From the NCBI GenBank assembly GCA_965285935.1, contig OZ260664.1:54932001-54996000 (forward strand): 64,000 nucleotides of DNA, given 5' to 3'. Positions 21,161 to 62,417 of the stretch are shown piece after piece; position 1 is the first letter of the stretch, and each line of letters starts with the position of its first letter. The notes under the pieces are model-generated. The model was not told the origin of the DNA. It was given only the letters and a program-made list of their open reading frames with translations, and did not search any database. Both the position numbers and the translations under genes were made by a program. The stretch comes from Ophelia neglecta (Eukaryota).

Positions 21161-21233
21161 CGAAAACACAGTATTCACATTTCCTGCTGCCCATTATATT
21201 CGTCAACAGAGCTGTGAAGTCACATACTTTGAA

Positions 21234-35400: not shown

Positions 35401-38400
35401 TTGGCGACAGAGCCGGTCACAGGCGCTGGTTACAGTCATCCAAGGCACATTAATGGCTTCAAATTGGCTTATCTGTTTAGAAAGAAGCGCCCATGATAGT
35501 TGTGGTCAAATGCAAGTCATGAAGAGGTCATCATCTGGCGGGATGTCCGTGGAGAAAATCGGCAGCCCTGTCAATCTAAAGGGCTTGATAAGCTGGAACT
35601 CTCCAGAATATATCAAAAATTGTTCTATATACATTTCCGCCAGGCTTTCGTGCCAACCAGTCGACTTCTTATGAAAAGTTTGTTTTAATAAATTGAAAGC
35701 TGCATGATAATAGGATGACAGTACGCTATGGTGATTCGGAAAATGAGAGAGTAGGGCATCAACATAATCGGTGTTTACGTTGATTTATGTGCGCAAACCG
35801 TTCATGTATAGACTGGCAGACGTAGAATTACAAGGGGGAAGTACTCTATTTTGACGGCCCAGGCAAAATTTGGGTGGTTTTCTCAGCTATCCTTCCATGG
35901 AGGTAACAAGCGTAATGGCAAACTACACGCAAACCAAGACAGCTAAGCATTACAAAAACTACAAGGAGAAAAAAGATCACATTGTGTAGCTCTATCAATC
36001 AGACCAGGGCTACATAGTATATACGAACATGGCCTGCTGGCCTAAGACTAAAATGTTGAAATTCTGCCTTGCTCATTTTACGTGTTCGAAAGGTTTATGT
36101 TTAGGCTATGCGCATTTGAAAAGAAATAACCATAACAGATGATCTGCGGTGGAAATTTATTTTCCCAACTTGGGTGAAAAGGCGTTTGGTTCTGAATAGT
36201 CTTGGTGTAATTTGACAGATTTTCAGCCATTTTGTCTGTTGTCTCCGTTTTACAAATGGTGGCATGGTTCTGTGTGGACCACGAAGCAGCACTTGTCAAG
36301 GCCTACATGCAGCCAGAAGCTATCCTCGAAGCATCCTAAATGCGCCACAAGGGAGTATTATCTCAATGAGAACCTGCTGAAATATTAATGCCGCCAAAAC
36401 ACGTAACACAAGGGTACCGACGGCGGAATGATACTGAAAACAACAGCCAGACTACAGCAAACGTCCAACCATCCCAGGACAGCGTGTGACACCAGCCCAA
36501 GCATAATATCAGACGGCTACCAAAACAGTGAACAACTAATACCACGGCAATATCAGTCTGAATATTAAATCTACCATAAACACCGCCACCCTGTGGGAAA
36601 ATATTGATGCATCTAGAAAAAGCTTAGGACCTACAGTCCTTGAGCGGTGGTCGATCGCATGACCATGTTCAAGCTAATGTGACAGATTTCATTACAACGC
36701 GCAGCACCAAGGGAGCCGGTTGGACATTTTCTAACATTTTCCAATTTCGCCCCACATTAGCCCGTCAAGACGGGAGGGCGGAGGGCGACGGATGCCGTAT
36801 AGGCATGCACAGCAGGGATAGATCACGCCGTCCCTGGCCACCCGACCAACGGACAACATTATGAAACGCATTATAATCCACGGCCTCTCTCTGGCCAAGT
36901 CATCGTGCATAATAAATCCGACTAATCAGGCATGCCACGCAAAAAGATCATCAAACAACGTCTAGAGACCGGATCCAAATGACTCCCAGCCTGCTTGATA
37001 AATCCCCAAACAAGACTGAAATGATTTCACAAAGATAACACGACCACAGCATGCCATAGGATTATCAATTTTAATCCACTAGTTTTGGATTCCCAGAGAT
37101 GCCTAAATATGGCGGACGTATGACGTGCCTATACACAATTAACAGATATTATTTCAAAGTAGCTAGCAGTTTTTCTTAAATTACTGTATTAACTAGGGCA
37201 AAGGTTATTTTGAAATATTTACCAGATTATTCATTTCCGAATTGATGCAATTTCGCCTTTGTTTTGAAACCCTTCGAATTAATAATAATTTAGAGGATAA
37301 ATGAGGTAAAATTCCCTGCATGGATCTCATTCGTGTACGTGTACGCAATACAGGTAAACCTTCTTCATTTTCACCCGAAAACAACATATAAATAATATAA
37401 TATTCTCAGAGTAATGTATTGATAATGTATCAAATCTCATTTAGATACCTTCTAGCGATGACAGCTTAAAGAAGAAAATGATGAGATGGACCCAGTAGTT
37501 GACATGCCTTGTACTCATCAAATGAGAAGAATATAGAAAACGACTGCCTTGAACAGGTGACATATTGTATATTTATCAAACTGTTGTCGCCGCCATATGA
37601 CAGTAGAGACATCATGAGCTAAAGGCTGAGGTGATGACGGAAAACGGCGGTCTACCTTCTTAGCACCCCGGCGAGGAGCAAATAGGGGGAAACCGATCAA
37701 TTAGCGCCGCCCCGCGGCGAAATAAGAGGGAAACCTAAAACAGAGTCAACGCTTAAAAGACGCCGACACCAATGGCATATACGAAAAATAACTATAAATT
37801 GCTGTCGAAAAGTAAAGGTATTTCAGAAAATAAGTGCTAGGCATAACAAATGATCAAATACCATCGGAGTGCCTGATAATGTCAGTAATCCCGACTTGAA
37901 AACACGGGAAGGGTCTTTTCTGTTACCCTATCCCTAGAGATTGGGGTTTCGAGACGCTGTCTATATTCAACAATTGATCGCCGTTAGCGCGTAATTATGG
38001 CCGAGTTTGACAGTATAATGCGCATCCTTTTCAGCAGGTTAGCGGCGGCTCTCTGTGAAGAATTACTGGCGCGCTGACCGTAAAAAGCCGCGAGTTGGTG
38101 TTTAATAGAACAGTCACTCTCCCACCAAGCCTATGTATGTTTTCAAGGCGAAAGACGCCGTCGAGTCGCCTTACACACAGGCCTGTTTATTGAAATATTA
38201 GTGTTATCGCCCCGATCTACGATAGGTCGGGCACACTGAGATGCCGGGGCGATTCTACCTATGATAAGTCTCCTGCTACAAAAACCTCTCCTCTGCCTCG
38301 CCGTGTAAGGGGGTAACTTCACCGCCCGCCTAAACACTGCCAATATCTGTAAAACTTCATATCAAGAGTTTTATACGTTTTTCGCTTATTACATTTAACG

Positions 38401-39681
38401 CCTAAAAAAGTTTAAAACGTAAATGAACTGGCTACAAGAATAACGTTATCGAGTGTATAGGTCTGATAGGTAGGCCTACGCCCCGTGGCAGCAGCCAGTC
38501 TAAGATCCCAAAGGACAATCCATATACTAACCGACATTTTGAAGATGTTTAGCGATAAACAAAATCAAGCAAAAATAATTGTTATTTTCTAACTTTACTC
38601 CTGAGATTATACCGAGAAGACACTGTTTGAAATCTCCACGTAGCGGGTTTTATCCGCACATATACTTGATTGCTTTGTTATGTAGATTAACAGCTAGACT
38701 AATATATCTACACGTCTAAGTATAATTATAGGTCTTATATAGACACATAATAGGAATATAAAATCATATTTAAGTCCCCATTCACTCCTTTCATAAATGC
38801 AGCTACCCCTGATTCTCAACCCCTCGACAAACTACGCTTAAAAACTGAACATAAAGGTCACCCAGGGGATCATTTATTAAACCAGGTTTCAATGCTCTCT
38901 TCTCGATAACAATAAGGCAATGAAACATGATCTAGACAAATAAACATTCTGGCGGTTTGTCATATACATAAAATATTATTTTGTGCGATTAGAGAACATA
39001 AATTAGGTGCACACTTATTAACGACCCACAGGGCCCGTGGCATGTGAAATCTTTATCAAAAATCTACGCCGATAGGTAAAATTGACGGTTTATATTACCT
39101 ATAGGCTTTGTAAGCAGTAAAAAGAGTGCCCGATTTCTGATAACTGGAATTAGAAAAGCCATTATTTATCTAACAACTGGTGCAGAAACACACAGCAAGT
39201 AAGACGAATCAGTTTCCAGCACTGTGGGTAGATGTCGAGACTATATAGGCATACCTGTGGTGTCTCAATTTGAAGAGGGATAGTTTGAAAATAACTACAA
39301 TGTAAGACGATCCTGAAAATTATTAAAATGCACCTTTCATAGTATTATAATTATAAAATTATAATATTTAATATTTAATAAAGTAGATATATAAATAATA
39401 ACTGGAATGAAAAGAGTAATGAACAAGAAAACGTTGGACATCATTAACCAATTTAGAAACCCTCAATGACCCAGCTTAGGAATGAAGCCCTAACCCACAG
39501 CAAAGATACACAACACTACAGGGACCAGCAGAGCGACGGCATTTTTCAGACAATAATGGATGTAAATTACAATATAACGTAGCTAGTCCTATGTACTCTC
39601 TTACAAGAGCCATAACAATTGTCATACGAGCAACTGCATTTATATCGTTCTGGTTTTCTTGCTTTTCTTGCCCATTTTCTT

Positions 39682-39807
39682 GCTGATCATTCCATAGAAA
39701 AAGCTGATGATTCCATAGAAAAGGCTGATCATTCCAGAATGAAAAGGCTGATCATTCCATAGAAAAGGCTGATTCCAAAGACTGAGCATTCCAAAATTCC
39801 AGAAAAG
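39682..39807. repeat. Minisatellite of about 21 bp (GCTGATCATTCCATAGAAAAG), about 5 decaying copies
   Basis: Tandem copies are directly visible. Confidence 0.85.
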
Positions 39808-42800
39808 AAAGTTAATATATAAAAACTTTGTACCTTTCTCACATATGTATAGGTGTACATATATAACTAATAATATATAGATAGGCCTGCATAATCAAAT
39901 AGTTCACTGTGAGTTAGTATAGTATAGTGTAGTTGGGGGTGCGAAGGAGGTTGGGTGAGGGATAGGAGTTATATTTTAAAATACAAAATGACTCGACGAG
40001 ACCTCAATGTAATAAAAGTGGTTAAAAGAAAAGGACTGGATCGAATTTCTTCCGTGGACTATAGGACATATAGCTTTCTGGCAGAAATAAATATTACATG
40101 AACGCTTTGTTTATTCTTAATAAGTATGTTTAAACTCAATGTAAACCGTCTTTATTTCTGTGACTGGTGAGGTATGGTGCAAACAATAATTGAGGCAAGT
40201 CTGATGTTTAGAAAACCGAGCTTGTGGACGTTATATACGTGCACATGTTCCACTAAGTCCTAGCAGTAGTTACCTCGGTGAACCGAGCTCCGAGAACAGG
40301 GTGATAAATCCCGGACATCAGACCTGATTTATGTAGGCCCGTTTGCCAGCCGATTGGAGAATGGTAGAATGGCGTGAGAGAGAAAAGACGCCAGATTTCA
40401 ACAGACCTCACACATGAGGATATGGCCAGCCCACAATTAATACCGAATCTTCAAAGTCTTAAAATCAAACATGCGTGTATCATCGGGCTGAAGTATCTTT
40501 CCCTTAAAACTTATGTGCATGAAACTAAACAAATCCATGAAAATAAACAGAAATAATTAACGGTCTAAAGCTGTTTAAATAGTCCTGGGACTATAAGTAT
40601 TGAATTTGAATTTAATACATAATAAGACCGACGTATATGTCCCCGCACGTTGCCTGCCTGTCACCAGTTTAACGAATATGAGCATACTCAAAGGATAATT
40701 AAGTACCGCCTTTTGTTGGTACGGTGTATTAAATCAAGACTAAGAAGCAAGACAACTGGCCCAAGACATGCATAACATGCTTGGGTGGCCCTCCCCCTTA
40801 ATGTTTACTGATAGCATATAAGCAGCATATGGGCATACAGGGCACATCAAAAGCAAATTGGGGCGAGGGGGTCTCTAATACTATTGATTTTAACACTATA
40901 TATCACCCATACCAACTCAAACTCGATCACGAGTCGGCTTCATTGCCGGGCTTGATGAGCAGCAGACATCGAAGGAGAAGCAGGCGGCCATTTTGTGCCG
41001 GCAGAAGGAGACCGAAATTTCTTCCCTCGGGCAATCGGGAATTATTTCCACTCCTCCTGCCTAATCGGCGACATAATAAGAGGCCTACGGGCCTTATTAC
41101 ACCCATAAACCCGCTGGTATTCACGACCCCTAGAATCAAGCCGTATTATGTTTCAATTTGTCCCATCTAAGCCGCATGTGGAGACGAAAAATACCGGCCA
41201 TATGGAAATATGCATTCAGTCTGACCTCTGAAAAGCGCCACAATTCAATTTATGCATTAAAAGCACTCGGAATAAATGCCATTTCAGCTTTAAGTACCCC
41301 ACACCCGCCACCGTGAAGTGTGTAAAATGCGGTAACAACGGACAAGAGTAAAGCAAAGTGTTAATTAAAATAATTAATGGCATGTTCGATTTAGCATAAT
41401 GAACGCAGTGTCTGGTGATGAAGGTGATTCGTCATCTTTAAACCGAGCAAATAGCCACGTGATTGCAAACCAACGGCGCTGTTCGTCACTTAGAACACGG
41501 TTACACCAAGACATGTATTCCTAATTGTTGAAAAATCATGTTTGATGTTTAAACCACCCGTAAGGTGTTCTGTCGTCAATGTGCCTCTTTTGTAACAGTT
41601 TGAAATGTTTGTGTTTCTGTGCAAAAAACTGTAAGCTAACAAGGAAGAAATGGAAGGACGTATCAGTCAAGCGCTATTTTCTCAAACGTTGCACATGGAG
41701 TGGTTAATTCGCCGGTTTTCACTTAATATATTTACAATAGTGCGGGATTTAAGAAATTAACCTAAGTGAAAGCAATCATATGCCAAACTGAGAAATATCA
41801 AAGGGCTATTTTGTGAGAATGTGTCAACAAAAGTCTGGATGAGGCGTATTTTGTCGATGACAGCTGTTGATGAAACGTAGAGGAACAATCTGTCCCCGAA
41901 CTTGATAGGGGAACAGACGGCCGAGTCACCCCCGACTGTCATGGAATACCAAAGACGCTCCTAATTATGTGTTTAGGTGGGTTTTCAAAACCTACACCGA
42001 GCATTTTTCAACCAGGATGACGTGTAATTTACTCTTCATCATATTCTTTGATAAGGCCCTGATAAAAGGCCTCCTCTGTATTAGTTACCTTCGCCGATTT
42101 GCTATGCGGCCGAAGGGTGTCATTTGGTAAAGGTGTGAAGAGATAATAACAGGTTTTTAGTTTGATACAGATACAATTACCCCTGCAGATCCCATGCAGA
42201 GAAAACTGAATTAAAAATGTCGTCTGCCGACGCTAAGATGGCGGGAAGTGTCTCTATATCGGGAACCAATCGATATATTCAGTTTTCTAGAAGGTGGTCA
42301 TTCTGCCAAGAAAGCATCTGCGTATTCCGACAGGTCCACACCCCATGTCATGCAAAGGGTAGATCTGTTCTCGCGCTGCCACCCACAGCACCGAATTGAC
42401 GAGATATATTACAACAGTTTGACAGATTCGTGCTAGGGAAAGCTGTTAGAATCTGCCTGCATTATGCAATGGACGTTTTCGAGTAGCCCTGATCTGTAAT
42501 TTAGTGAGTGATATCACTATAGGCAGGGTAATGACGAGACTTGTATACATCTATCACTAGGATGGAGACAGGACGCCATGAGTAACTGGCTGAGGCCCAT
42601 AACCCAGTGATTACTGATCTCACACACGCGCAGCACATCTGCCACAATACAAAAGGTACCAATTGACAAAAATTAGAAAAATCAAGGGATCATAAGGCCT
42701 ATATGCTAGGCTTTTATACATTAATCGTCATTTATATTTAAAAAATCTTATTTTTTCAATTAATGTTAAAAATTGCATAAGGTCAAAAACAAAACCCGTA

Positions 42801-43729
42801 TGGTCTGTTTTGCTTTGGAAACAAAAGGCAGCCAGATGGTCCATTCTTCCTAGGAAAAATAACACCCACTCTCATCAACTTGTTTATTGCCGTCAGATTT
42901 CCACCATCTACGCCCTTACGAAAACCAAATATGGACTTCTAAGACAAGCTACATTATGCTCTTCCCAGCACTGTTATTATATCTTGCCCTTATAAATACC
43001 TTTAAAATAATTTTAATCTTAATTCTACATATGCATCATATTCATGAGTTGGATTTTATTAACATCTGTGCATGAACTGTATGCATTAATTCACTAGTAT
43101 TTGGTTAGTTCACTAGTATTTGTATGAAGTATATGCTAATGTATGTAATTTGTTGTTATTAATTGCCAATAGTTTATTTATTTCAAATTCAGGGGATTTA
43201 ATTGTACGAACACGGCTTGCGGTGTTTTGACTACAGCAGGCCGACAGTAAGAATGTTGATGTAGTGTGGTTGTGTCAGGGAGAACCGTTTGGTGACAGTG
43301 GTTGACGCCAGGGTTCAGCAGACACCGAGGGCGGAGTGAACATCTCGGTGATGACCCGGACCACCGGCCTCGAAGACAACCCTCGAAGGCCCACACGTCA
43401 CAAGTCGGGTGGTTTGCAGCAAAATCGACTAAATACCAAACCGCCACTCCAGTCAGAATTTATGGTCATCGGTCATCTCAAATTCTGATACGCACGGGCA
43501 AGACAAGTTAGTAAACAACTGAATCAATTTTTAAAAAGCAATTTCATACACGCAATCCGTTCACCTTATAAACAAAAGAACCCAACAACAACGATGATCA
43601 CAAAAGTCGGGCACAAGCAGGATGTGAAGGCGCTGTACATACAAGTATATAAATGTGCTATTACAGGGCGGAGGGGGTGGGGTGGACAAATCAAAATGGT
43701 TGGGGGCGGGAGGGGGGGGGTAGAGGTAT

Positions 43730-44010
43730 CCCCTGGGGGTGGGGGCAGTCACCATACATTAGGTAGTACATATGTTGGGAATAATACGTGATGTAGAAAT
43801 TTGACCCCCATTTGGGAAAAATGAAGTCTTTTGACCCCTATATTTAGTCTCAATGTAGACTTTTGACGCAATCATTAGTTATACTGTACAGTTCTGACCC
43901 CTTAAATTTGAGTCTCAATGCAGATTTTGCCCCTTTATTTTTGATTTGATGCGGAACATATATGTCTCCATTTTCAATTTTAAGGAAAGTGCCCCCCCCC
44001 CCCCTCGGGG
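43730..44010. mobile_element. Non-autonomous TIR element of about 280 bp with G/C-run terminal inverted repeats
   Basis: Left CCCCTGGGGGTGGGGGCAGT versus reverse complement of right end CCCCGAGGGGGGGGGGGGGCACT. Internal sub-repeats TGACCCC x3 and AGTCTCAATGYAGA x2. Confidence 0.55.
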
Positions 44011-47000
44011 GTGGCCCTAATTGAAGAATACTTTTGTGATGGAGAAGATGTTGGACGCCAAAGGAGATGGTGGGAGACATATGAACGGTTCAGTAACAGT
44101 TCTGCTGTTCGAACGTCCCGAACAGTCCCGCTGTAAGTGCTTCGATAGCATCGAAAACTGAGAAGGCCATGCAATGGCGACGCGGGGGGATCATTCTTTT
44201 TCTAGGGACCATGTAGTAGCCTAATGGTAGAGGTCTATACCATCTGCGCTTGTGGTAACAAAAGTGACTATATATGCTTTGCGAAAATAACACTTTAATG
44301 AAAGTGCCCACGTCATACTGCTAAAAATGACCACGAACCTGCCATCAATACTTGCAAAAAATGGCAACTTGATTTACCAAATAACCGGAAACGACGACAT
44401 GAGCTTGATAGCGACCATTCTGTAAGAATGAGCCAAGCTTGGACGAGGTAACATAGGCGGCTTGTAACAGTATCCTGAGCCAGGAAATGGCCCTCTTGAC
44501 AAGACAATTTACCAACCGAGCTTGTCACCAGGAAATTAAAAGGAGTTCATATCCGAAAACCCATCCTGATAAATGGTGTAACATTTTCCAATCTGTCAAT
44601 CTGATTGGATATCAGATTGCCGCGAACCTGTTGTGTGCACTGCACCTGCGCAGTGGGGGTCTGACACGGGTCAGGCTGGAAAAACCAAACGACACTGTGA
44701 GGTGGCCGCCCAACAGCGAAATGCCAACCAGCCGATAACCAATTCAATTACTTTATAATTGCTTCCATGAAAATCGAATTTCCTCGCCTCTCTCCTCGTT
44801 AGTCGCTAAATTAATATGTTATTGCCATATAGGTACAGGGGAACAATAGAAATCTTAGATTACATCAAATCAAATAAACACATTTACAAGAAAAAAAATC
44901 AACTATTATAGTACATAATACTGGTTGCTTTTTGTTCATGTAGCCTTGTTACCCTAGCTTTTTCCCATCATTTATATACCATGCAGCATAACATGCTCCT
45001 GGTAATAACAACATTACATGAAAGGCTCCACTCCACAAGCCCTCCGTTTCACAGATATTAGGGGCTGACAATGCAACATAATCAATAGGAAACGCGACAT
45101 AAAGCCGATGGTAAGCACCCTAATTAAAGGCAATTATGTTGTATAAGATTCTGTCTATCGGGTTGATGCGCCAAGACAGGTGGAAATAATCTCTCTCGAG
45201 TGAAGTGGTTGATCTCCAAGATAACTACATAGGTAGGCATCTAAACAGAAAAGATTACTGACCAAAAGATCAAAGGACCAGCAGGGAAAGAGCAGAAATT
45301 CCCAAATGAATGTCCATCGAAAAGAAAGAAACTGAAAACTCCTGAAGTTTTCCTGACATGCGGACCACCACAGGTGGAGATATGATGTTTTTTTCTTAGT
45401 TCAGAACAGAAGTAAAATTCTGCTACAATGTTTGAAGGAAATGGGAGCAAGTGTTGTTATAATTGTCGTATGTGTTTACAACACTTTTATAAACAATAAG
45501 TAATGACTGGAGACATATCACTTCTTAAAAGTATAGTTCCCATTTTTTAAAAGCTATGATATGCGGCTAACCGAGCAGCCTCTGTTTTCTTTTTAACTAT
45601 TTTTGGTCTGTTTTTTCCCGAATGCTGTCATGTTTTGCTGAGGCTTACACCCCCCATCCTCAAGGCTTACAGCCGGAACAAAAGGACTACAATTACAGGA
45701 ACGTGTGTCCACTCTAGTCAAACACCAGTCCACTGGCATCACAGCTGGCTCCCAGCCTCCATACCAACTAGAAGGGCAATAAAATATAGCTTTACCACCG
45801 GCTCTCAGTTTCGCCAGAAGAAACTGCCATTCTTCAAACTAATCTATGCTGAGAGCTAAATGTCATCTTCAGGTGAAATCGGTAGTAAAGCAAAGGCGAT
45901 CCGCGCCATCTTTTTGGCAGCAGCTTTTTAGGCCATCACCAAGAGGAAAATCGGTAATAAATACTAATCTCTGTCGAGAGGGTCGGACATATCAGTGTAC
46001 AACTGTTCTGTTGTAAGAGACAACAACTCACTGTTGTGTGGCTGTGCGGACATTGTCCTGCAGCGTTGGATGACAAAGGAAGCGTCGATGAAATACGGCC
46101 CGGGGGCCGGTGACTGACGGCCCTGGGAATGAGGGAGCGAGGGGGAACCAAATAACTCTCCATAACGTCATTCACAATGGCAAACGAGAATTACGGCCCG
46201 CCAAAATACCTCCCCCGGGGTCCACACCAAATCCAATAACCCGCAACCTTGGCAGAATAACGATCGGTTGCCAGGGTAACGGCGGATGTAGCGGCGAGTA
46301 AGTGATGGGGTAGCTGAGCGGTTGTGACGGACAGAGAAGGTGAAAGCAGGCCTCGGCAACCTCGACCGACCCGGTCCCTCGGGGTAAACCGCGCTTATCT
46401 GGCCGGCGGACTCGTCCGAGTGAAATACGCACCCATACATCCTCTTTGGTTCTGTGCTTTCAAATTCTACAAAATAATATAGGGACTTGCTCATATGTTG
46501 AAGCATTGCGGAACACATCTTCCAGACTTATATTATTCCATGTCTATACAATTTAAGCATGTACACGTGTGTACAATTCCCGTTCTGTGGGCTCATCATA
46601 TACAGCCAGATTCATATAAGCGTTCTTAGTTAAAATGGATGCTTCAGAACGTCGACCATGCCTATATACATTCATTATAGGCAATGCAGCAGAACGTGTT
46701 TCAACTGTTACAGGAAGCACATCATCGAGAACGCCATTTGTTTCCAGACAGACTGAGCCATTACCTATCAAACATTGTTCTGTCTGTTTAATGGGATGGT
46801 CCAGAAGATGGAGCTTAAAATGGTTACAAAGAAAAATTGGTGGCCATCGAATTTGTCTAATGAATTGCACATTTCCCGGCAAAATTATCTAGCCCACGAT
46901 AAAAGCAGATAAATGTGATTAATTATGGCCATTGGGGGCAGCACTACAACGACAAGTCAATAATGGAAGAGCCAGGTCCCTCTAGTTCAATTAACATCCA

Positions 47001-50000
47001 TTTGAAGAGATATTTCACTTCAGTAGTCCATTATGCCGGCGTTTATTGACGACCACATAATTACAAGACAAGGGTCTAATGAAAAGCTCTCCTCCGGTTG
47101 TCTAGCTGGCCTCACAGGCCATATGGACCTATTTCTTTCTCCATACATTCTGTTAATCAAGAAAGAATGGCAAGCTACTTGGCCTATAAGGCAAAGTTAG
47201 GTAATTTCGCGCATAGTTTAAATTTGCGCATCATATATTCGATGGCATTAATTCCTGTATATTATTTAATTCCGCACAGTTTTTAACTTATAGGCGGACA
47301 CTACTACAGGTCAAAACATCGTGCGCGGATTAAGTCTGGCCGGAAAAAAACCGACGCCCAAACTCACCCGACGTCCATACACTTGACGAGAACATGTCGC
47401 CGGACGCCTAAGGGTCTATATGCGGACATTAAAAATGCAATACCAAGAATCGATTCCATCCAATCCTATAAAACCAGGTTTATTCAAGCTGTAAAGTATC
47501 TAATTAATTATGTATGGCACTAGAACTTGCTCGTTAAGTTTTCAACATCCAAGAGTGTTTAATTTATAGGCGAAGCATGTGCACGTAGTTGCAGAAAATG
47601 CCGTATGAATTAATTATATCATTTGAAAGAAAAAGGGGCCTATAGGTCCCAGGCCGAAGTATTGGCTTGTCATCGTTATATAATTTTGAAATAATAGTGG
47701 TAGGCCTATAAACGAGTTGATTTGATGCTATGTTTGTGTTTGTTAGTGTGTGTTAATAAGCCCATCTGTCGAAACAATTTTATTATAGGCCATTATACAA
47801 AGATATATCGGATAAAGAGAGAGTGTGTGTCTAAACAAATCTGAATGGACTTTGCAACACCATTAATATAAACACGTGCATTTTATGCCCAGGTCAGATT
47901 TCAAAGGCCATTGCATTGGTATAGGCTTGAAAAGGCCTACAATACGCTTAAACTGTTGAACGTTTTCCAAAATATGGACCAGTTTTAGGCATATATGGAG
48001 ACCAAATACCCCTGAAGAAGGCTGTACAAGGAGACGCTATAGGGAATAGGCATATACTGGCCTAAAGTATGCGCGTTTTAAACAGGTGCATATGCCCACA
48101 TATAAATACACCTTGGAGAGAGCTTAGCCAAGAGGACTTACGTAGGACATATATAAGAACAGTGTATAGATGTGTTTCAATAAACTTTTTACGGCGTATC
48201 GGGGCTCTGTTTTGCCCCCCGGACCATTGTAGTTTTCCATCTTTGTTATTGTAGTATTGTAGACATAACCATTTGCTTTATCTCAAAATTGTACATGTGG
48301 GAGATTACGGGCTTCTGCGTTTTTAAAAACTGCTAGGCCTATAATGATTCATTGTATAAATTAAATGAGGTTTTAGACGCACCTGTTTTACAACATTCCG
48401 GCTTAAATTATAACATCATGCACATATGCCGTGGGTACCGAATTCATTAAATCACAATATGTTGGACTTCTTTGAAACAATTTGTATTAAATCAAACATC
48501 ACTTTTTAGGTGTCACTATCATCATAGATATGTATAATGTATTCTCTATATCTATGCTATCATGCTACCATAATGGGCGCCTTCTTCGAGGATACAAGTT
48601 GTCTTATAAGTAGCCTAGTTATATTTCAGTAAAGGTGAATGAATTTTGCATTCTAAAATTAGTATTTTAATTCTGAGCCCCTCGGCAAAACAGGGGAAAT
48701 GAATGCGCTATACTCAGACTAAACCCCCCTGCACTCGTCAGTTTAACTTAGATTTGACACGAAGGGACTCCTTTAAAAAAGGCAAGGAAAGAAAAAAGAA
48801 ACTTTAAGAATGCGAAATAAATCTATATGATTAATTGGCGAAGGAAAGAATACCGACAGGTCTCATGTTACAATGACATTTTAAAACGTGAATAGCCCTC
48901 GAGATAAACAGGGATAGATAAACATACTTCCTCTTATTTCACTGTTTTGCCTAGTAAGCAGTGGGGTTTATTTCCCCAAATCATAAGAGGTTTGACGCCA
49001 GGCTAGTTATATGTAATATCTTCAGCGATGAGCACGTGGAAGAGGGTCATAAACGTCAGCCCCTTGGGCATTCCCAAGACAAGATGGCGATCACCCATGC
49101 TGTGGCAATTTCACCAACGCCTGCGGCCAATAGCAAGGTGTCGTCTGCTGGCCAAATCGACACGAATCACCAGATAACGAGGGAAAGCCAGCGGAAACAG
49201 CCCAGAATAAGGCCAAAAAGCAGATAAAACAGAGGCGAAACATCACCAGAATTTCATTAAAAATCAGGAACATGGTAAGAATTTAAACTGAGTACAGTAG
49301 AATGTCTTCTATGGCTGGTTAATACGGCGCGGATGTGCCCCCCCCCCTCCCTCCCCAGCCCCCCAATATCTCACAATCATGTCACGTCAAACTGCATTTC
49401 TCGTAATCGTTTTCCGGCATTTCGAGATATCTTGGAGCATGTGGTTTCCATTGAATAAATGTTCATTTAGGAATTAAAAATAAAACCAAGCAGGTTTGTG
49501 AAGACTTGGGTTCTTAGATGACGGTTTAAGTGCTGCTGGCGCGAGGTTGCTATCAGATGCCGTTAAGAAGAAGACACCGGAGTAGCCATCAGAGATATAA
49601 ATACGTCTGAGTTGTTAGGGAGAGATCATCGAAGTCGACACGTGGCCAGCGCCGGGGTAGGGGTCCCTGGCGACTACGAGATACAATGTTTCTCTGGTTG
49701 AAGGCATACACCATGATTGCGGTCTCCCGCCCCACAGATGGACATTAAAGCAAAACGGTGGCGATTGCTCACCAGTGCTTTTCATTAGCCGGTCAAACAG
49801 TCATATCGAACTACGTCTGACCTGCGTCTTGAAACAGTGCGGTTTTGTGGTCAAGTGGTGCGAACCAGGGTCATCTTTTGCAGTAACTCGGCCTCGTCTG
49901 CATCTAAGGCACTGCATTGGCGCCACCGCGGGTTGACAAGGCCGACAGGCCATGATTTATCTTTGTCCGCAACAGAAGGGGCCTTTATTGGTGGAGCAGA

Positions 50001-53000
50001 TGAGAGACAGTGCGGCGCTTGCCCGGACGATGTGCTCCTCACGGCTCGCCAAGCACCTTCCTACCCCCTCAAAACAACCGGAACACAACAGGAAACGAAA
50101 AGCTCACAATAAGAAATGCACTGCCATATAATAATCACCAGATTGACACCGTAATTACCGCGAAGTTCCTCGCTAATATCTATGGTCATGCTAATGAATT
50201 TCCAGTCACGAATATTAGCACAAACAACACTACACTTAAAAATAAACAGCGGAACAACATCGCTTTAAAGTTTTCTGGTAAATATGGCCATAAACAATGT
50301 AGGAGTAATTGATTCACATACATAACTAAGCATGCCACGATTGAACATGTACAATGATACACCCCTTAATGTCTAAATTACAGCCAAGTTTGAGTCGCCA
50401 TTTATTGAATAAATATGTGTAAATATATACATTATATGAAAAATATTTCCGAAACCGCAGCTTGGTATACAATGTGTAAAGGATAAATTATGGTCCCTTA
50501 AACGCATGGTAGATTTTGACATTTTGACTTTATACTTAAAGTTGATAAATTTATGAGCCTGCATATGGATATTGGATTTGCTACGTAAATCATAGTTTTA
50601 AACGACTATAAAGCTTGTTGACATTGTCAGAAATAGTATATGGGCCTTATAGGATCTCCTATATGACTGTATTGCAGTGTGCTTTTTTATACATACAAAC
50701 TACAAAAATGAAAAACATAAAAAATTAAGTTTGCGTTGAACCTGATTCAAAGTGATTTTCACATAGAAAACTTGGTAAAAGGCATAAAGTATATCGGCCT
50801 ACTTACAAGTAAATAATAACAGTATTTTTTTGCTTCCAAACGTTTATTGCTCTTGTACGTTGCAGAAGACAGATTAGCTCGAGGGTAGATTACCGGGGAC
50901 AGGTGCCCTACTATAGTTATTAATTTTGACGGCCCACACAAGATCGAACTCCCCATGCAGCAAAGAAGTCTCTACTGGTGAAGTCGGCTTTAAATCGCCC
51001 GACATCGTGTTTCGTCACTGCCAGTTCCCATTATCTACCTCGCAAATCTGAGACCAGGAGGCCGACAATTCACCACTACCTGCCTCGGATTCATTACTTA
51101 CTTCTAGGAATCGACCTAAGCCCTCGAGAATTGATCAAGTTTAAATGTGAGTTTACTTAATTCATATTATAGTTCTTATTAGTGTCTGATTCCGGGCAAC
51201 TTCAGTTAATATGACGCTGTTTTTCATTGGCCAATATGCCATGTTTCGCTCGTCCCTTGGAGCGGAATTCATTGGCAAACCTATATCGTCTATGCATTTA
51301 TTCTCGGAAGAAATCCGGCAATTTGTGTATTATTAAAATGGACAACTTATATTCCTATATGATCAAGGTAAAGCCTATAGATCTTCAAATGCTACATGAT
51401 TAGCAAGCGTCTTTAGCCACAGGCACTCGCACTTAGATAAATCTAGGCCTACAGGTCTATGATATAAAAAGAAATTATATCTGTAATGATATGAATACAT
51501 ATTTCAAAACTATGTATAGACTAAGACTATTCTGACCGGCCTATATAACCCTGGAGATACGGCTGAAATACATTTCATGCATTCTAGGAAAAAATGCTTA
51601 AATTCACGGGGAGACAAAATAGGGATGAATGGAATGTTCTTTTTCCATCTCAAAGTTTGAAGTTAGGCTACTTCCCTATAAGGAGTAAAAAGTTTATTCT
51701 TTAAGTCAAGCGTTTAAGCCACATTGCCGAGGAAGTCAACATTTATATGTCCCTCCGACATAGAATAACGTTATAAACCAATCTCACTGAAAGTCTCAAT
51801 AAGCAAGGGACGCAAATCGTCTCCTTAACATAGATAGTCCAAAATCAAGGCTATTTTCTCCAAGAAACTATACAATCACATTTGAAGTGAGTGTCACTTG
51901 TAGTTAGGCCTCTCTATGGTCTACAATCAGACCTTCCATTCTATTTCAGCTGGAGCCGGGGCAGGTGAACCCCGTCTAAGATACAGACGCAGTATATGAC
52001 AGAAGGGACAATGGGCGTATACTTTCTCATTCTCAGTACACAAGGGGACTACACAGAAGGACTATATAGTCTGAGTCCGTAAAGGTATATATATATATCT
52101 ATCATATAAAATGTCCTTCCACAATTTCGTTAGTTGTATTGTAGCATAGGCCTAAATAGGCCTACTCTGTGAATTTTCAACATTCGTACTTGTGCTATAC
52201 CCTGCCCCTGTAGGACCAGTTGTCAGTGTCCGCCATACTCCGCCCACTGCTGCCAGATTGGAGTTTTCATGCAGTGAATAGCTGGGAAGTGAAAATCACT
52301 ATAGGGATGAGAATTTGGACAAGTAAACTTCTTTCTTCGATAATTTATGTCAGCATTTGTGGAGCAATACATCAAAGAGACAGAGGGGAAAGCTCTCAAC
52401 AAATGGTTGTTTACTGCTCCTGTCAAAACAAGCGAGATTTATGTCGTTTTACTCCACGAATAGATTCGTTAATACAGTCTGGCAACTTCAAAGATGACAC
52501 GACCAAAGAAAATGCGCTGTACAAAAACTGTTGCATATTTTTTCAACATAAAGTATTGTCATTATGTACGACCGACCCTGCCTCTGTGCCTGTTTGAAAT
52601 AAAGGTTCAAGGTATGCCATTAACACGAGCTGTATAGAGTCCGTTCATTCACTCCATTGTCAGATGTTCCATTTATCTATAGGCCAATAGGTATAGGCCA
52701 CCAGAAGGTATACATTTAAAAACTACATTTTTCCATTTAAAATGATTTTTAAATCCAATTGAAAACTGGCTGGACGTAATAAATATTGTTTGTAGAGAAC
52801 GTATATTTCAAAGAGAAATTTGGGAGTTTATTTGCGACCAAATTTTGCTAATTCCAGTGCAGCCTGCATAGAGAAATGACGGCTGGCCCACTCACACCTT
52901 TTCACCCCCGTCCACCTGTCCATATCACTGCGCTCTTACTCAAGCTAGTCGACAAACGACTTCTTTTCGAGAGGAAAGCCCGGATTGGATTGCAGATTTG

Positions 53001-56000
53001 TCAAACAATCGTATGAGAAATCGCCTCTTCAACCTTTCTGGGTTCCTTCTCTTGACAAGCTGAAGACGATGGAAGGCCTTCCGAGTGCGGAGCGATTTCA
53101 GATTTCAGCCAGTCTTTCAAAATCACCGAGCGGAACCCGTAACCCGTGATTCCTAGAGAGGGCCTATGTGATCAGTAAGCGCTGATTTCGAGATTCTGTC
53201 TCGTACCACAGGTTTTTTATCAACATTGAATAAAGCTTCAAATACAAATGCCAGTCTAAAGATTTCAACTTTGTTACTGGAAAAGGCTAGAAAATTGATG
53301 ATTTCAAGCTTACTACCAACATATATAGGCCTACACTTCGAAATTAAAATTTATATATATCTATTTTATCAATAACTCGCTTTTTCACTTAATGGTCATG
53401 AATGCCAAAGATAATAACGATTTTCTGCACAAATAAGCATAGCCTTAATACTTAATATTCATAAACTAAACATTGATAAACGTTCTTGAAAAACGCCCAA
53501 GTCGAATGGAACGTTTGAAAAATCGCCAACTTCACTAGAAAACAATTTATTCGTTTGCAATTCAATGACATGTAATACATTACAAATACGGATGGCTCTC
53601 ACCTTCCTTTAAACAGAACACAGTCATATATATCTTCATTGACTTTCGGAAGGGATTCGATTAAGTTAATCAAAATGAACTACAGTTCAAACAATATGGT
53701 AGCCTAAACATGCATATGCTATCATATGTGGTGCGGTTTTCTATTATTACAAGTATAGGCCTATATTCTACCAATAAGTCTCAATTTAGGGCAGCTATGC
53801 CATCTTACTGATCATTTCGAAGTCATCATCATTCTTTTTATGCTATATGTATATCAACGAAAAAATAAATGGCTGTGGCATGTGATCAGACAGGTGCACA
53901 CGTTTATGTGGCACTTAAAAATTATTCGTTGTATTGTATCGGATGACGCAGTAATTCAAACAGAGAGCAGGAGGTTTACAAGCCGGATCAAAATGTTCGA
54001 AACATATTGTCATTTTCATGAAGTGGTTAAGATGGTTAGGGGTTCACGTTATAATCAAATTATAAAGAGCAAGATGTATACATTGTTATTATTTATAATA
54101 TAATTATATTGGTTTGGTTTTATATAACAATTCTATCTACTTAATCTAGGTCCGCGATACATTCTGCCTCTTTTTGCTCAGATGGTATATGGTCTGTTCT
54201 AAATTAAGGGGCCGACATTTTTGTCGTTCATGCTTTTCTTGCGTTTGAGGGCGTGCATCATTTTTTCTGTAAGAGATGCACGGTCAATGTATAGTGCAAC
54301 ACTACTTTGAAGACCTACATAAGGAGCACATTTGTTTAGGCAAAGTTAAGACATTCTCCATATAAATATATTTATGCAAATATATATATATAGGCCTATA
54401 AATTGTAAATTGTAAATTGAAATAAATATGAACTGTGGACAAGCAAGTGTATACCTTATTCTTACAGCCGAGGCACACTTTTCTTAATTGGGCAATCATT
54501 GAAAAACAGTTTTATTCAAACAGGCCTATGGTTTCAGCGAAGTGTGGCTTAACCAAGGTATTGGTGATATTAATGTTTTATATTTCAGCTTTTCGTCAGA
54601 GACCGACTGATTGTTATTGGCGGAAACGGCGCATATATCTAAGATTGTTATAACCAGTGTGTCTTGTATAAACATTCGAATGATCCTTCTTGCTCGGCGC
54701 ACATATATATGACATCCGGTATTAATCTAAGTAACATAATAACACTGGTTTAATTCAGAACATGGTATCGTCGTCTCTATATTAACGTTGTAAACCTCCC
54801 ATATAGATTTGCTCGAGCGGAAACCTGTCGTCTGAACCTAGCTGCCGGATCATTTTCATTTGTGACTGAGTGCTGTTTAATTTCTTGAAATACAAGCAAA
54901 TATATTTCTAGTTAGTTCGTAACTCATCCTAACATGTTCAAATTAATGCAGCGATTAACGTGTTAACACTTAGTAGACAATACCGAATAACCTGTCAATT
55001 TACTTGCCCAAGGCACCAACTATCAGACAATCATATTAACCTCATATTTTTGTAGGCTATTTGCAATTTCTTCACAGTCATTTTTTATTTTTTCCTCTAA
55101 TATCATCTGTTTAATATACACTGTAGCTAGATACAAGCCTATTCAACAGGATGTATTTTCATTCAGTTTAATCAACTTTCCATTTGGTTCTAATTTCCAA
55201 AATTCAATGGTTATCTCTTAATTTGTATCGAGGCTTTACTTTTTTAATAATAAAATTAAGCTTTAGGCCGAGGCCTATATAGAACACGTGATTTAGACAC
55301 AGACAGGTAGCCCTAATTATTAATCCTATAGTGTATCAGGCCTAAACTAGGTGACTTTTGTTATGACAGAAATACACAAAGAATACCCTTACAGCTGGTA
55401 TCAATACTTTTGCCATTTTCTGAGACTGTTTATGTGGATTCGAAACAGATGCATGCATAGGTTGTGACGTCGACGCTCAGATAAATACAAGCTTTATATG
55501 TGTAGAGGATAATTTGTTTAACCTGTATGTTTATTTATTTTAATCGGTTACGAATACAACAAAAAGAAAAATGCACCCTTACATTATACAAAAAATTTTA
55601 CACGACGGCCCAGCGTTGTGCTATAGCGTGTTGTAAGCGTGATATAAGCTGCGTTTTAGCTTGATTTAAGCGTGATGTATATGTCTAACCGTCCAGTGTA
55701 GCGTTGTGTTGGCATCATATATAGCTAGTTTTTTAAAAATGATAAATTAGGCAATCAACGAGAAATCTATAAGCATTGAAAGGTAACGCGTGAAAAAAAT
55801 TGGATTCGTGTTCTTGTACCATAGTGTATAACTGTATAGGCCTAAATAGGAGCGACATTTCGGTGAAAGTCATTTCAGTCTCAAGTATCAAAAAAGAGGT
55901 GAGTAAAGAGGCAAAATTGCTGGGGGCCTGAGTAAAACCCAGTATACAACTCTGTGGAGCCGTCTTAATCAGCCATTAATACTTTTTAATGAAGACACAG

Positions 56001-56319
56001 TTTTCAGGAGAGATAAGCTCGATTAGTTGGAGATGTCGTGCTCAGCCACCGTGAGTTTTTCTCTCCCGGGCAGTCCCCGTGGGTAGGAGAAGGCAAGGCG
56101 TTTGTACACAGTAAAAGAACCAGGACTAGTCCTAGCAGACATTTAGAGGGTGGATCAATCAGGATCGCTCAGATGCACTTTTCGAAGTCGATTTCGCCAA
56201 GAGACGTGAGACACTGGCCAGACGCCCGGTCTGGAGACAGGGTGTATGTGTGAACACGGCGCCGCCGAGCGAGGGAGCAGACGACCGACCGAGCAGCCGA
56301 CACCAACGCGCTCGCGGCC

Positions 56320-56377
56320 CGCCATTTTCCCACAGCGAAGGTCAAAGGGTCAAGAGGAGGTCACGCCGGGTCACGTG
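56320..56377 (+). promoter_or_regulatory. Composite enhancer-like module: YY1/Pho site, Su(H)/CSL site, four RGGTCA nuclear-receptor half-sites (DR2, DR5, DR4) and CACGTG
   Basis: CGCCATTTT-CCCACA-gcga-AGGTCA-aa-GGGTCA-agagg-AGGTCA-cgcc-GGGTCA-CGTG, lying at the end of a CpG-dense patch. Confidence 0.55.
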
Positions 56378-59300
56378 TTCCTGTTACATTTAATAGGAGA
56401 TTTTCAAGTAGTTGTTTAGAACGAGCAATGCCAAAGCCCTTCAATGCTGAAGATTTGTTTGTATCAAGGGCTTAGCGGAGGTGCTGTTCGAGTCTCGAGC
56501 ATTTGTTTGTGGCTCAAATCTGTGTCTCTACACTGGCTGTACGGTTCACATTTTACTCGGCTCTTACTCATCGAGGAAACACTACAACTATTGATGTAAA
56601 GGACCTATACAAAACACAACATTTATTCAAGCCTTATTAATTTAAACTGCTTTCACAATCATACAGAACCACATCTCACTATACATATGTTCATATTTTG
56701 ACATTTATTTGTTAACTAACAATATAGTTAGCAATGGTACAGATTCTATCAATTGCTGAAACATGTATGTATGTTCATTGAAACTAAAAAAAAAATTGTG
56801 AGAACTTTCAACAAGGAAATGCGGACCAGGAGCGATAGTCTCAGAACCACTTTAGGATTTAAAGTGGCCCTAGCTTGTGGCCTTGGGGGATTACAGAGTC
56901 GATATAAATATATACGTTGGGATATGCTAAGAGCATTTTAAATAACCCAGTCAGTCGCCATTTAATACTCGCGCCAATATGAGAAGACGCATGGTCACTA
57001 TAACTCGACTGACCATGAGTGACACAATTGCTCGATGCTTTGGCACTCAACGGGGCACATGGACACACAGACGGGATAACTCCGACAGAAAGTCATGAAG
57101 TTTCCCCAACTCTGCCAAGAAGCCATTCAGTTACCCCAACTCTCTAATGAAGCCCTGACGTACCCTAAAAATACCCTTATTAATTATAGAAGAATCCATC
57201 AAGATTGGGGACTGCTAATAATGCAATGCAATACGCGCACCTGGAAAAGAGAATCCTCGCGTTTCCCCAAATTGCCCATAGAATATTCATAGCAGCTAAA
57301 ATTTCTGAATCTGAATATTGACAATATCTGAGCAGGGTATACATGAGTTTCATTCGCTCACACCATGCGTACAACAGCAAATGGATAAGACTTGGTACAC
57401 CTGCATATTTACAAAAAAAAAACAAGCGATTGATGCCAGTGCACCACCAATTATAATAGCATATTTACAGTAACCCTAAACCGCGACCAAACAGGAGGTT
57501 GCCTCTTAATACAAAACATATCCTATGCCTATTATTTAGATCTATCTAGTAATCGTTGAAAAAAGTAAACATAACAATAGGTCTGTTTGGGATAAAACTG
57601 CTGATATGACACAAAAATAATGTCTATAAATTTAGTGCTTACATGTAAAGGGCAGGGCATCAAACGACGGCGGAAATTTGAAGCTTTTTTCCTTTTGATC
57701 GTAAGTCACATTTCAAGCCGGATGATACACAAATCCTTTTTGGCCGACTCTAATCACCAGTGTATACATGTAAAATACATAAAACTCGTAATTTGAAATG
57801 AGAAACGAAGAAAATCACCGATAAATCCTTCATGAGAGCAAGTATAACAAGATGTAACAAGCGTGTAGGGTAGTCGGGACTCAATAAGTCTAACACAAAC
57901 CACATGCTAGGAGCGCCAATAAAACACTCTTGTGTCCCCTTAATCCAAATCAGCACGGCGCCTCTTCTGATGGCTTCCACATAAAAACTCCCCCAGCGTT
58001 AAAAAGTAGCTAGTCTTTTGGGCCACAGGGCGGAAAGAGGCCAGCCCGGCAGAAACACGAGGATTACAGTTACGCGGTGACGTCGCCAAGTAATTGACCA
58101 TCCCCACCTCTCGGGCGTTTGATCTCCGCCATATCACTCTACTTTTCAGCTCTTTTGCGCCACAGAAAGTCGAGTTACGACTGATTTATTCGTTTTTTTT
58201 CCTTGCTGAATTATGGATAAAGGAAAACTTTGTGGGGTCAAGGGGTAGTGAACATTGGAATTTGGAGATGGCGATTAAAGATTGTCACATTTTGGCGTTG
58301 GGTTAAGGGTAGATTATTATGCTGCAGTCTCCTTTTCTCCCTAGCTCACAGCCGACTTAGTAATAGGCCTACCAGACATATAAAATGCAGATATCAACTC
58401 ACTTGACGCATTTCCTGCACACACAAAAAAACAATCACTGGCACCATCCGATTACTTATATTGCTGAATTTCGCCCTTTTTATGTATGACACATTAAATT
58501 TAATTCTCCCAGTTTGTTGAGTCCTTATATTAGATGCATTATGTGTCTTTTGACTGCTATAGTAGTGTCCATTTCAACTAGGTACTAGCAAGAAAGCGTT
58601 TTATGAAAATACTGTAACTCACTTAATTGCCTGTGGACTGTAGGCACAATTCTGGGTGCACACTGACAAGGGAGACAGCAAACAAGAAGGTAGTGTTGAG
58701 ATGCGAGTCTAGCCGAGAGCTAATCCTCTCTGGAGACAGGTTTATCAGGGCTTGGAGTGTACTGATGACATACATGGCCACTTTACCATGGCAATACCCA
58801 TGTATCGAAGTCTGGTCTAAATATGTACACAGCACACTCTCCCAGTCTCAATGCATATATTGTATAGCTACAGCAAACACCAGCCTCCCAGAAAACAAAT
58901 GTGAACCCGATATGAAGCCTGTCATATCTGCAGTAGTACAGTAATTGTGCCCATATATAGCCAGACATGTAAATATACCTATTTTCAAATTGCTCATAGA
59001 TGCATTAATATCACTGACACCACCTATTTTTTTTCTAAATAACTAGTAATGCATTGTTTGCATGAATTACCTTGAGAACAGAATATAAAACAACCAGGCC
59101 TTTACAAATTTACGTAGGTGAAAAGGATGTAAAGTCGGTAGCAGACAAAATCATTACAGGACTCCATCACCACCTGAGATGTGAGCTGTGATGTCAAGCA
59201 TACAGTACAAACTAGGAATCCAGCTTAGATTAATTAATCAATCTAGAGGTATTTACACTTGGAAACAAGTCATAAATAAAGTCCTATTCAGACAGAAGTC

Positions 59301-61224
59301 CGCAGGCTGTGCCTCTCTCTCCTGAGCCCTGATGTACCACTCCATTAGCACACTGACTATGAGTAGGTCCCTGACACATATATTCCACTTAACCTCATAT
59401 TCCTAGTAAGCAATTCATAATTGATTGATCAGTCTATTCCTGAATTCCTGGGCTTTATTTTTAAACATTAAAAATAAACATTATTAAACCATTGAGAAAT
59501 ATGCATCTGTATGAAGTCCCAGGTATGTGATCAAATATTTATCTTAATTTGAGGGAACTAAGCAGAGACACAAGTTACCTGTTGAATCATCAACTCTCAG
59601 TAATTTGGCAATAGTAACCAGACAGTCTATTTTGCAATAAATGAGTAATATCATTTGCCTCTTATATATTTATTTCTTTTTGAAATGTTTTAAAGAATAT
59701 ATTGGCATATTAACAACAATATTGCCATAAAATTCAACTACAGTTTTAACAGTAATTTTATGCTTAGATGGAGTAGATCTTAAGTGAATGCAGGAGAGTT
59801 ATAGATGCACATGTACTGGACATATTCAAATTTCTCTTTGATGATCCCATACATACATAAAATATCAAAGGGTAGGTAAACAACAAAATAAATCCAGAGT
59901 CCCCTAGTAAACCTTGTTAAGGCATTTTTTTATACCTACAAAATATATTGATTATATGCATAATTTTCCCTTGTTGGATGTCATGTTAATTTTACATCTG
60001 AATAATTCAATTCAATAGAATTAAAATTATATCATCTGCAAAAGACCTAATAAGGGCTTAAATGCTTGAATATCTTGGTTAAAATTATACTATTGGCATG
60101 GTATCATACATAATAATAATAATACTAGATCACCCACTATTCAAAGCATGCCCTACCCTCCTTTCCTAATATTCTGTGAGCATATTCTTTTGATGCATGT
60201 AAGCCATTCTATCTTAAGAGCATACATCAATATTGTATGAATTTTCCCACAATAGAGCTCTGCAGAGAAATGCTTTAAACTGGGTTGATTTGTCTTCACT
60301 GGACAAGGCCAGTACATAAATAATGGGAGCTAATGTATTCATCTGAGCGCTGGCTACAAGGGAAGCCATGTTTGATTCCATCGCACCTAGAACATTTATT
60401 TTGAACACACTAAGCACAAAACGGACTGTACTTACCTTACCAATTGTAATAAACATGAAAAATGCTTTATTTATCAAACTTGAGATATTCTGTCAGGTAA
60501 AATTACTAGTCCACTATGATTTGCATGGTATTAATTATGTGATTATCTAACCCAGCTAACGAGAGGAGTGAGAAACAGTCTGTCTAATTGTTTAATCTGA
60601 ATAGACAAAAGGCAAGACAACAACAAATGATAACTCTACAGCATGTAAATCTGTGGTTTGAATATCATAGTTTGATGAACACCAGAAGGTGTCTTATTTG
60701 TATGAATCCATCACCAACAGCCACTACAATGGTGACAGAGCCCTGCAATCTGGCAGACTCTGAAGGCATGCAGGGCCCTCAAGAGTTTAACTAATAGGAG
60801 GCCCTGTCAGAGATTGGATCTTTTTCAGTAATTCTTAGATCACCATGAATTTTAAATGCATGTATATTTAAATAGATACATGCCTTTGTCTAGTAATAAA
60901 CAAATTTACTATAAAAAAATCAAATGTCTGAATTCAATACACTGGGACTGTTTGTCTCCTTTGGACTGGTGCCTTAATTTTCAATTCAACTACAGATATC
61001 GTTTTGTAATGTATAACACACGTGTGATTGTCAGTAGCTGTATCATGTCACAGAGATTATAACCCAGACAATACATTGAAACTGACAATCTGCTTTAAGA
61101 ATAAAACAATGCATAGTTTTATCTGTATGATTTATTCTTAATGCATCTTAAAACTCATCCACTCGTCTACTACTATCAATGGTGGCACCCTCTGGCGAAT
61201 ATGTTGCTTTCTATCTGGTTGATG

Positions 61225-61272
61225 CTACTACTTCAGAATCCTCCCTATAGCTACTACTTCAGAATCCTTCCT
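61225..61272. repeat. 26-bp tandem duplication (CTACTACTTCAGAATCCTYCCT)
   Basis: Two adjacent copies at 61225 and 61251. Confidence 0.8.
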
Positions 61273-62417
61273 GAACTACTAACAGCTTTTGAGTTGGCTC
61301 AGGGTACAGAACACAAGATTCTTTTCAAGCTTAGGCCATGTCAAGTTAATCAGTTCTAGGCATTTTTTTTCTCTCAAGAAAGTGAGGTGAGAGGCTTTTT
61401 CATTTCTCTTAAGGTCAAAAAACAGGTCATCCTTAGTTATTATTTATTTTACACCAGTATCATTAGGTGAGAGCACAGGGTTTTTTCTTTTTTGGCCCAT
61501 GAATTATATAGTGAGGGTTGGAGGAATTTCTTGTTCCACACAAACTATTTTGAGGGGGCTGGTTTTTCTTTTTTGCACAAAGAATACATGGAAATGCTCA
61601 AGCAGATCAAAATAATCGTGTAGTTAGTATTAATAATTTCCCTTTAAGTTGCCATATCCAGTTGGATTGCCTGAAGGCATTTATGACTGTCATATGAAAC
61701 TCTTTATTTTGACATTAACCAGGAAAGTCATCATGCCATTTATTAAATGACTAACACCCAGTTGTCCTTAGAAAAGTAAGAGTAGGTGGTTACACCAAGT
61801 CTGGTGCAGGAAGCGGGCAATATTTTCTACTGTTTGATTTTTATTTGCCCAACCTGGGTCATGCGGATTATTTTTGTTTACACTTTCTTAAGCTGATGAG
61901 GCAGTGGGTGATTTTTTTTAAGCAAAATCATTATAAAAAATATTTCAGTGGCAATTGTGGAAGGAGGCGGGCGCTGCCTGAGTATCAATTTATTAATTTT
62001 AGACAGCCTTAAATAATTATTTGTATATGTCAAGAACCTGCCAAGTATCAAATACTTGAAGACAAACACAGTTATACAGGTCATTATTTGACCAGTGTTT
62101 CACACTGTCGGGACATGATACAGTTTAACACAGTATATAATGTACCTCTGGCTAGGGGGTCACCTTTCTTTTAATTTTTAACATCTGCCTACCACTATGA
62201 CTGAACAAAGAATTTTTTCAAACAGCATATCAACACTAATAATCAAAAGGTGGTGTAAATATCAACAAGTAAGATGTTATACATCTTTTTTTCCTTTAAT
62301 TGTGTTTGATACGAGATGATATATTAATTGTATTATGCAGTCAAAAATATAAAGTAATTCCCCATTACCCTGCGTAAGATATAAAAACCCTACCTTTCTT
62401 AAGGAAAATAAACCTAC

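Follow-up and report, generated by a model that had tools for sequence, protein, structure and literature searches.

A single-copy array of four direct-repeat half-sites in the Nbea intron hosting mab-21 of Ophelia neglecta is a candidate nuclear-receptor element

Most of the window, the 64-kb stretch of Ophelia neglecta DNA analyzed here, is taken up by a single intron of the Nbea/Lrba gene, within which a two-exon mab-21 gene is nested (Table 1). Among named proteins, the best matches to the Nbea exon came from annelids (88-89%), and by eye the mab-21 sequence also resembles an annelid record. The flanking Nbea gene body is CpG depleted (observed/expected [o/e] ratio, 0.22-0.37), and the 54-kb domain within the intron that has retained its CpG dinucleotides ends in a sharp step at ~58,322, 4 kb inside the intron. 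Gene-body methylation is reported to be mosaic in annelids (PMC11292947). As annelids methylate gene bodies in this mosaic fashion and CpG has been retained here, the domain around mab-21 is presumably unmethylated and open, with CpG retention serving as the proxy. In outline, it looks like a methylation-free island within a methylated housekeeping gene.

Table 1. Coordinates of the features discussed, counted from the first base of the window
Feature	Position	Strand	Remarks
Nbea/Lrba intron, 58.2 kb (58,200 bp)	4218..62417	-	Hosts mab-21; one flanking exon ends at 62418, the next starts at 4217
CpG-retaining domain, o/e 0.80	4500..58322		Inside the Nbea intron; presumably unmethylated
mab-21	28724..30699	+	Two exons, 28724-29217 and 30114-30699; presumed target
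Single-copy CpG-rich patch with the array	56001..56500		GC 0.54, CpG o/e 0.99
YY1/Pho-like word CGCCATTTT	56320..56328	+	Minus-strand reading AAAATGGCG
CSL/Su(H)-like word TGTGGGAA	56327..56334	-	Plus-strand reading TTCCCACA
Half-site array, RGGTCA x4	56339..56373	+	DR2 (sites 1-2), DR5 (sites 2-3), DR4 (sites 3-4)
Half-sites and spacers in order	AGGTCA 56339-44, aa, GGGTCA 56347-52, agagg, AGGTCA 56358-63, cgcc, GGGTCA 56368-73	+
E-box of USF/TFE type GTCACGTG	56370..56377		Shares bases with half-site 4

Five CpG-rich patches were found in the intron, compared with nine in a 1-Mb sample of the genome, and one of the five carries the half-site array. The core of this patch (56150-56380) has a GC content of 0.61 and a CpG o/e of 1.15. 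The 435 bp surrounding the array contain 32 CpG (o/e, 1.07), 30 of which lie outside the array itself; at least 32 CpG were present in 0.5% of 2,200 windows sampled across the genome and in 19 of 1,068 sliding windows of the intron. The four further patches are located at 14251-15300, 27701-28050, and 46051-46450. The one at 27.7-28.0 kb is likely the mab-21 promoter, and the others, which lack RGGTCA, are enhancer candidates. A separate CpG-rich stretch at the edge of the domain (57950-58322) contains GGGCGG (58028), TGACGTC (58078), and GAGATGGCG (58265), and is a better candidate for a boundary or promoter than the array patch.

The original prediction had described four perfect half-sites in a single orientation with spacers of 2, 5, and 4 bp, which matches the sequence base for base, all 24 half-site bases fitting RGGTCA. 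It had also placed them about 28 kb from the mab-21 start; the distance from the ATG (28724) is 27.6 kb, and the array lies downstream (3') of mab-21, 25.6 kb beyond the stop codon and 6.0 kb from the Nbea donor, within both the intron that hosts mab-21 and its CpG-retaining domain. At the sequence level, the array belongs to the direct-repeat nuclear-receptor elements, with at least two RGKTCA words in direct orientation and 0-5 bp apart, and it contains both DR2 and DR5 among the spacings accepted for a RARE (DR1, DR2, or DR5). GGTCACG is present at site 3 as well as at site 4, and these two sites may serve bHLH-ZIP factors instead of receptors. Among the 60 RGGTCA words of the window (35 plus, 25 minus), the array is the sole cluster of more than two. 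An independent-site model predicts ~2e-6 such arrays per window, and none of 100 dinucleotide shuffles of the window yielded a triple.

No tandem-repeat or window-level repeat call covered the array, and a 301-bp query around it matched only itself in the 762-Mb genome, in a search that passes over words of very high frequency. The spacers and flanks are unrelated to one another, confirming the earlier statement that this is not a simple tandem repeat. Membership in a multi-copy repeat, which had been named in advance as fatal to the proposal, was looked for, and the array proved to be single copy and non-tandem. A tandem or dispersed repeat was therefore rejected as its identity, as the units are neither arranged head to tail nor present in multiple genomic copies. 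Contigs from three runs of one sample cover 54950-56689, with 10-12 differing letters each.

The expectation that the array is exceptional as such did not survive comparison with the whole genome, where many other four-site arrays occur. Triple RGGTCA matches numbered 1,411, versus 271 for a reversed-word control, and of the 30 triple loci examined by eye, which came from the initial 10 Mb of a single contig, most were minisatellites or dispersed repeats. Four-site arrays, counted for two of the five possible first spacings, were likewise in excess of the control when starting with DR2 (27 versus 9) or DR5 (167 versus 48); one sub-pattern of the array was rarer than its control (14 versus 34). 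Since RGGTCA arrays are frequent genome-wide and mostly located in repeats, shuffled sequence is the wrong null model and overstates the surprise of this array. In 100 evenly spread 10-kb samples (0.86 Mb left after masking of tandem repeats), 10 perfect DR1-5 pairs were observed versus 2.3 expected (4.4-fold; rank 10 of 672 words). This corresponds to ~12 per Mb, or ~0.7 per 58 kb, outside tandem repeats, and an isolated DR2 or DR5 beside a gene therefore carries little meaning in this genome.

These counts give weight to a neutral explanation, in which the genome often produces GGTCA arrays through short duplications, satellites, and CpG decay, and one of them landed or decayed in a CpG-rich patch whose function, if any, is independent of the array. 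RGGTCA is denser in CpG-poor DNA (1.55 versus 0.97 per kb) and RGGTCG is rarer there (0.13 versus 0.58 per kb), which fits a contribution from CpG decay; the array can also be read as AGGTCA-n-GGGTCA twice. Furthermore, array loci are not enriched in CpG-rich DNA: 5 of 53 other loci reached 20 CpG per 435 bp, against a background of 9.4%. However, decay should be weak in the CpG-retaining DNA where this array resides, and every half-site base fits the consensus while spacers and flanks are unrelated. The array also lies mid-chromosome, whereas most of the listed four-site arrays are found in the distal, repeat-rich arms.

A closer comparison was possible with the 27 DR2-started four-site matches, which were merged into 19 loci (8 overlapping matches dropped), 12 of them covered by called tandem repeats. 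The array was the only CpG-rich locus of the 19; the next one had 16 CpG and an o/e of 0.62. Identity among the flanks of its four sites was 0.30, versus 0.32 +/- 0.09 for unrelated sites, and no other GGTCA was present within 250 bp. Flanks were equally unrelated at three other four-site loci, and three other loci had no GGTCA nearby; the array alone combined both properties. It therefore carries no trace of slippage. None of the 53 further array loci reached 32 CpG. Nevertheless, a single case in the top 0.5% for CpG among ~70 examined loci has a chance probability of ~0.3 without any selection, and given this value and the lack of CpG enrichment at the other loci, the evidence for a function of the array is real but modest. 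On balance, we regard a neutral origin as unlikely but as a serious contender.

Several observations on the GGTCA words of this genome were made along the way. GGTCA words on one strand form the basis of many minisatellites and dispersed repeats that are unrelated to one another and often lie in distal chromosome arms. Receptor binding, mutation bias, or repeat turnover may account for this; our searches of the literature on GGTCA-rich satellites and repeats in invertebrates found nothing relevant. One dispersed repeat family (L327, L333, L345; 1400-1600) combines a TATA-like word with a DR5-DR4 triple and an octamer-like ATGCAAAT, one after the other; this family could be a mobile element whose promoter responds to receptors. 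At G000:C12:62.5-64.4 Mb, 38 copies of the DR2 15-mer form a single cluster, and the 11 copies inspected share, by eye, a context resembling an ankyrin-repeat coding exon in a large tandem gene family. At locus L086 (about 1470-2100), a perfect DR1 is found directly upstream of an ATG opening at least 200 codons, at a rise in CpG, and is a likely receptor site in a promoter or 5' UTR.

Three further words touch the array, which we take to be sites of YY1/Pho (CGCCATTTT), CSL/Su(H) (TGTGGGAA), and a USF/TFE-type E-box factor (GTCACGTG). The CSL-like word, TTCCCACA on the plus strand (56327-34), overlaps the YY1-like word by 2 bases, and CACGTG at 56372-77 overlaps half-site 4. Each is common in the 64-kb window, with 6 occurrences of CGCCATNTT/AANATGGCG, 7 of GTGGGAA-type words, and 15 of CACGTG, and the three words together are suggestive, with none strong alone. 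CSL-type YRTGRGAA words occur 13 times in the window, and the patch holds one CSL-like word, with no second, paired CSL site seen there. Notch input to the patch is therefore weakly supported, and the original suggestion that the element integrates Notch signals, which goes back to one common 8-mer, was not sustained.

In a cnidarian, YY1 motifs have been tied to promoter-like intragenic sites (PMC13345969). Genome-wide, YY1-like words within 30 bases of RGGTCA numbered 705 and 629 in the two orientations, showing no orientation bias, and ~590 such neighbors would be expected by chance from the separate word densities, which is near the observed numbers. The combination of a YY1-like word with a direct repeat gave 50 genome matches versus 3 for the control, and 21 of the 50 came from two repeat families. 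A promoter class defined by this combination was rejected in view of these families, the missing orientation bias, and the few loci that appeared promoter-like by eye among 30 inspected.

These results bear on a second alternative, namely, that the patch is not a mab-21 enhancer but a promoter-like or boundary element, in which the YY1, USF-type E-box, and receptor sites would start an internal transcript (such as a non-coding RNA or a short isoform of Nbea) or help to keep the gene-body methylation of Nbea from crossing the edge of the unmethylated domain. The array lies just 2 kb inside the CpG step at ~58,322, and YY1 motifs are reported to mark unmethylated promoters in two annelids (PMC11292947). 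In addition, in many Nbea/Lrba protein records from animals a short private N-terminus immediately precedes the exon coming after the mab-21 intron, and on the Nbea strand the YY1-like word, read as AAAATGGCG, provides an ATG that opens a 56-codon frame. However, no good in-frame donor follows this ATG (scores of 2.3 and 0.4, compared with at least 5.4 for 17 of 18 training donors, on a rough matrix), and an alternative first exon in the patch would have to splice with such weak donors to the phase-0 acceptor at 4217. CpG is not depleted behind the patch, unlike at a constitutive promoter, the second CpG-rich stretch at 58.0-58.3 kb is nearer to the step, and there is no YY1-RGGTCA grammar genome-wide. 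Taken together, we consider a promoter or boundary role unlikely.

The short private N-termini, which were seen in Nbea/Lrba records from an annelid, an octopus, a fish, a bird, and a spider, hint at isoforms started inside the mab-21 intron, and some of them are possibly annotation artefacts. Comparison of the short N-termini of 44 records with the intron gave chance-level matches only, among the matches listed; a match of 7 residues at 61680-61660 (E, 0.28), which starts a frame of 16 codons, was attributed to chance. The GC-rich patch with its 56-codon minus-strand frame might suggest a hidden exon or structured RNA; this reading is barely credible and was largely refuted, as the patch has no ORF of 100 codons, the intron has no Nbea protein match, no Rfam match at E<=1 was found in 54.5-59.5 kb, and folding is weaker than in shuffles (z, +1.27).

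The genome encodes candidate cognate receptors. Searching it for zinc-finger exons yielded 72 matches, of which 30 were fetched and four were compared with solved structures at the level of the DNA-binding exon; the best PDB matches of these four were RAR, TR, RXR, and COUP-TF1. Further zinc-finger exons are, by our own recognition, presumably HNF4-, TR2/4-, and ERR-like. The RAR-like and TR-like exons are situated 39 kb apart on opposite strands (G000:C9:51.147 and 51.186 Mb), and what we take to be an NR4A-like exon lies at 50.95 Mb, ~200 kb from them; linkage of RAR and TR is known in vertebrates.

The original prediction had assigned receptors to the individual spacers. Platynereis RAR/RXR is reported to bind DR2, a binding for which DR1 and DR5 compete and DR4 does so to a marginal extent only (PMC5821490), a result restated in bioRxiv 2025.03.09.642214. 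As human receptor heterodimers have been described as binding most spacings (PMC6555819) and the annelid RAR/RXR is reported as marginal on DR4 (PMC5821490), the spacers do not name the receptor, and this assignment was abandoned.

The best reading of the array, to which we assign a probability of roughly one half, is that of a composite nuclear-receptor element acting on mab-21. What was retained from the original prediction is a distal cis-element of mab-21 bound by receptors: the array is single copy, lies in the host intron and in the CpG-retaining domain within a top-ranked CpG patch, does not resemble slippage, and has candidate receptors encoded in the same genome. What was given up is the exceptional array, the naming of receptors, and the Notch component. 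In this form, the patch would be a distant enhancer or silencer of mab-21; receptor binding, mab-21 rather than Nbea as the target, and the sign of the effect are all points that we infer. Two dimers could fit together, on the DR2 of sites 1-2 and the DR4 of sites 3-4, and one dimer on the DR5 of sites 2-3 would block both. As a DR5 dimer would exclude the DR2 and DR4 dimers, the array would act as a competition hub, at which a repressing orphan receptor of the COUP-TF or TR2-4 type would compete with RXR heterodimers (RAR on DR2 or DR5, TR on DR4) and so set the output. The YY1- and E-box-type words would help to hold the patch open, and Notch input would be possible but not required.

A more specific version would make mab-21 the target of a direct hormone switch, in which RAR/RXR on the DR5 and two dimers (TR/RXR or COUP-TF) on the DR2 and the DR4 would exclude each other. 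YY1, CSL, and an E-box factor would be bound next to them, and the element would also help to keep the 54-kb methylation-free island open within a methylated housekeeping gene. We regard this version as a long shot. If true, the array would represent a rare spiralian example of a natural target element of RAR/TR.

RAR and RXR of annelids bind direct repeats and control neuron differentiation. In our literature search, no genomic element targeted by annelid RAR/RXR was found, nor was any connection between a receptor and mab-21 of an invertebrate. A single-copy array of four half-sites in 35 bp, near a conserved neural and sensory developmental gene, offers a cheap and sharp test case, set in a clean CpG-retaining domain that has now been mapped around the nested mab-21. 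Because RGGTCA arrays abound in the repeats of this genome, any one of them is worth less when it is found in isolation. As judged from its sequence, the array is a clean and testable candidate, weakened by the high genomic background.

The nested arrangement itself varies among the animals that could be compared. The orthologous Nbea exon was recovered in 9 metagenome contigs (73-81% identity), and in 7 of them the matching intron spans only 0.26-1.0 kb; the next exon was not found in the other 2. An intron of this length is too short for mab-21, and nesting is therefore absent at that intron in the animals represented by those 7 contigs. No non-coding matches beyond chance were found between the 9 contigs and the Nbea intron.

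Both intronic enhancers of Mab21 and composite elements made of direct repeats are already known, and the array would add a worm example to them. With the GGTCA-rich satellites and dispersed repeats of its own genome it shares same-strand RGGTCA words at 1-5 bp spacing; however, most of these repeats are poor in CpG and occur in tandem or in multiple copies, whereas the array is single copy, non-tandem, and CpG-rich. Intronic enhancers of Mab21 genes nested in Lrba/Nbea were reportedly described by Tsang et al. in 2009. In the mouse, RAR/RXR regions are reported often to carry more than two half-sites, as possible multi-receptor hubs shared with COUP-TF (Chatagnon et al. 2015, PMC4446430). The array resembles these composite elements in its overlapping direct repeats with shared half-sites, in the proposed hub, and in the proposed competition by COUP-TF; in contrast, the mouse elements, as that paper presents them, were defined by ChIP in cells and often include DR0, whereas the worm array is DR2-DR5-DR4, all perfect, and defined by sequence. 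Likewise, DR2 and DR5 are among the elements bound by Platynereis RAR/RXR in vitro (Handberg-Thorsager et al. 2018, PMC5821490); the available text of that study describes consensus probes, on which DR4 competes marginally, and no genomic target element, whereas the worm array is genomic and includes a DR4. A parallel in position is an element in the lrba intron of Xenopus, which is reported to control mab21l2 and not lrba (PMC11511899). Like the array, this vertebrate element is non-coding and located in the intron of the host gene, tens of kilobases from the nested mab-21 gene. As described there (PMC11511899), CE14 is upstream, conserved, and OTX2-bound, whereas the worm array is downstream and of the receptor type.
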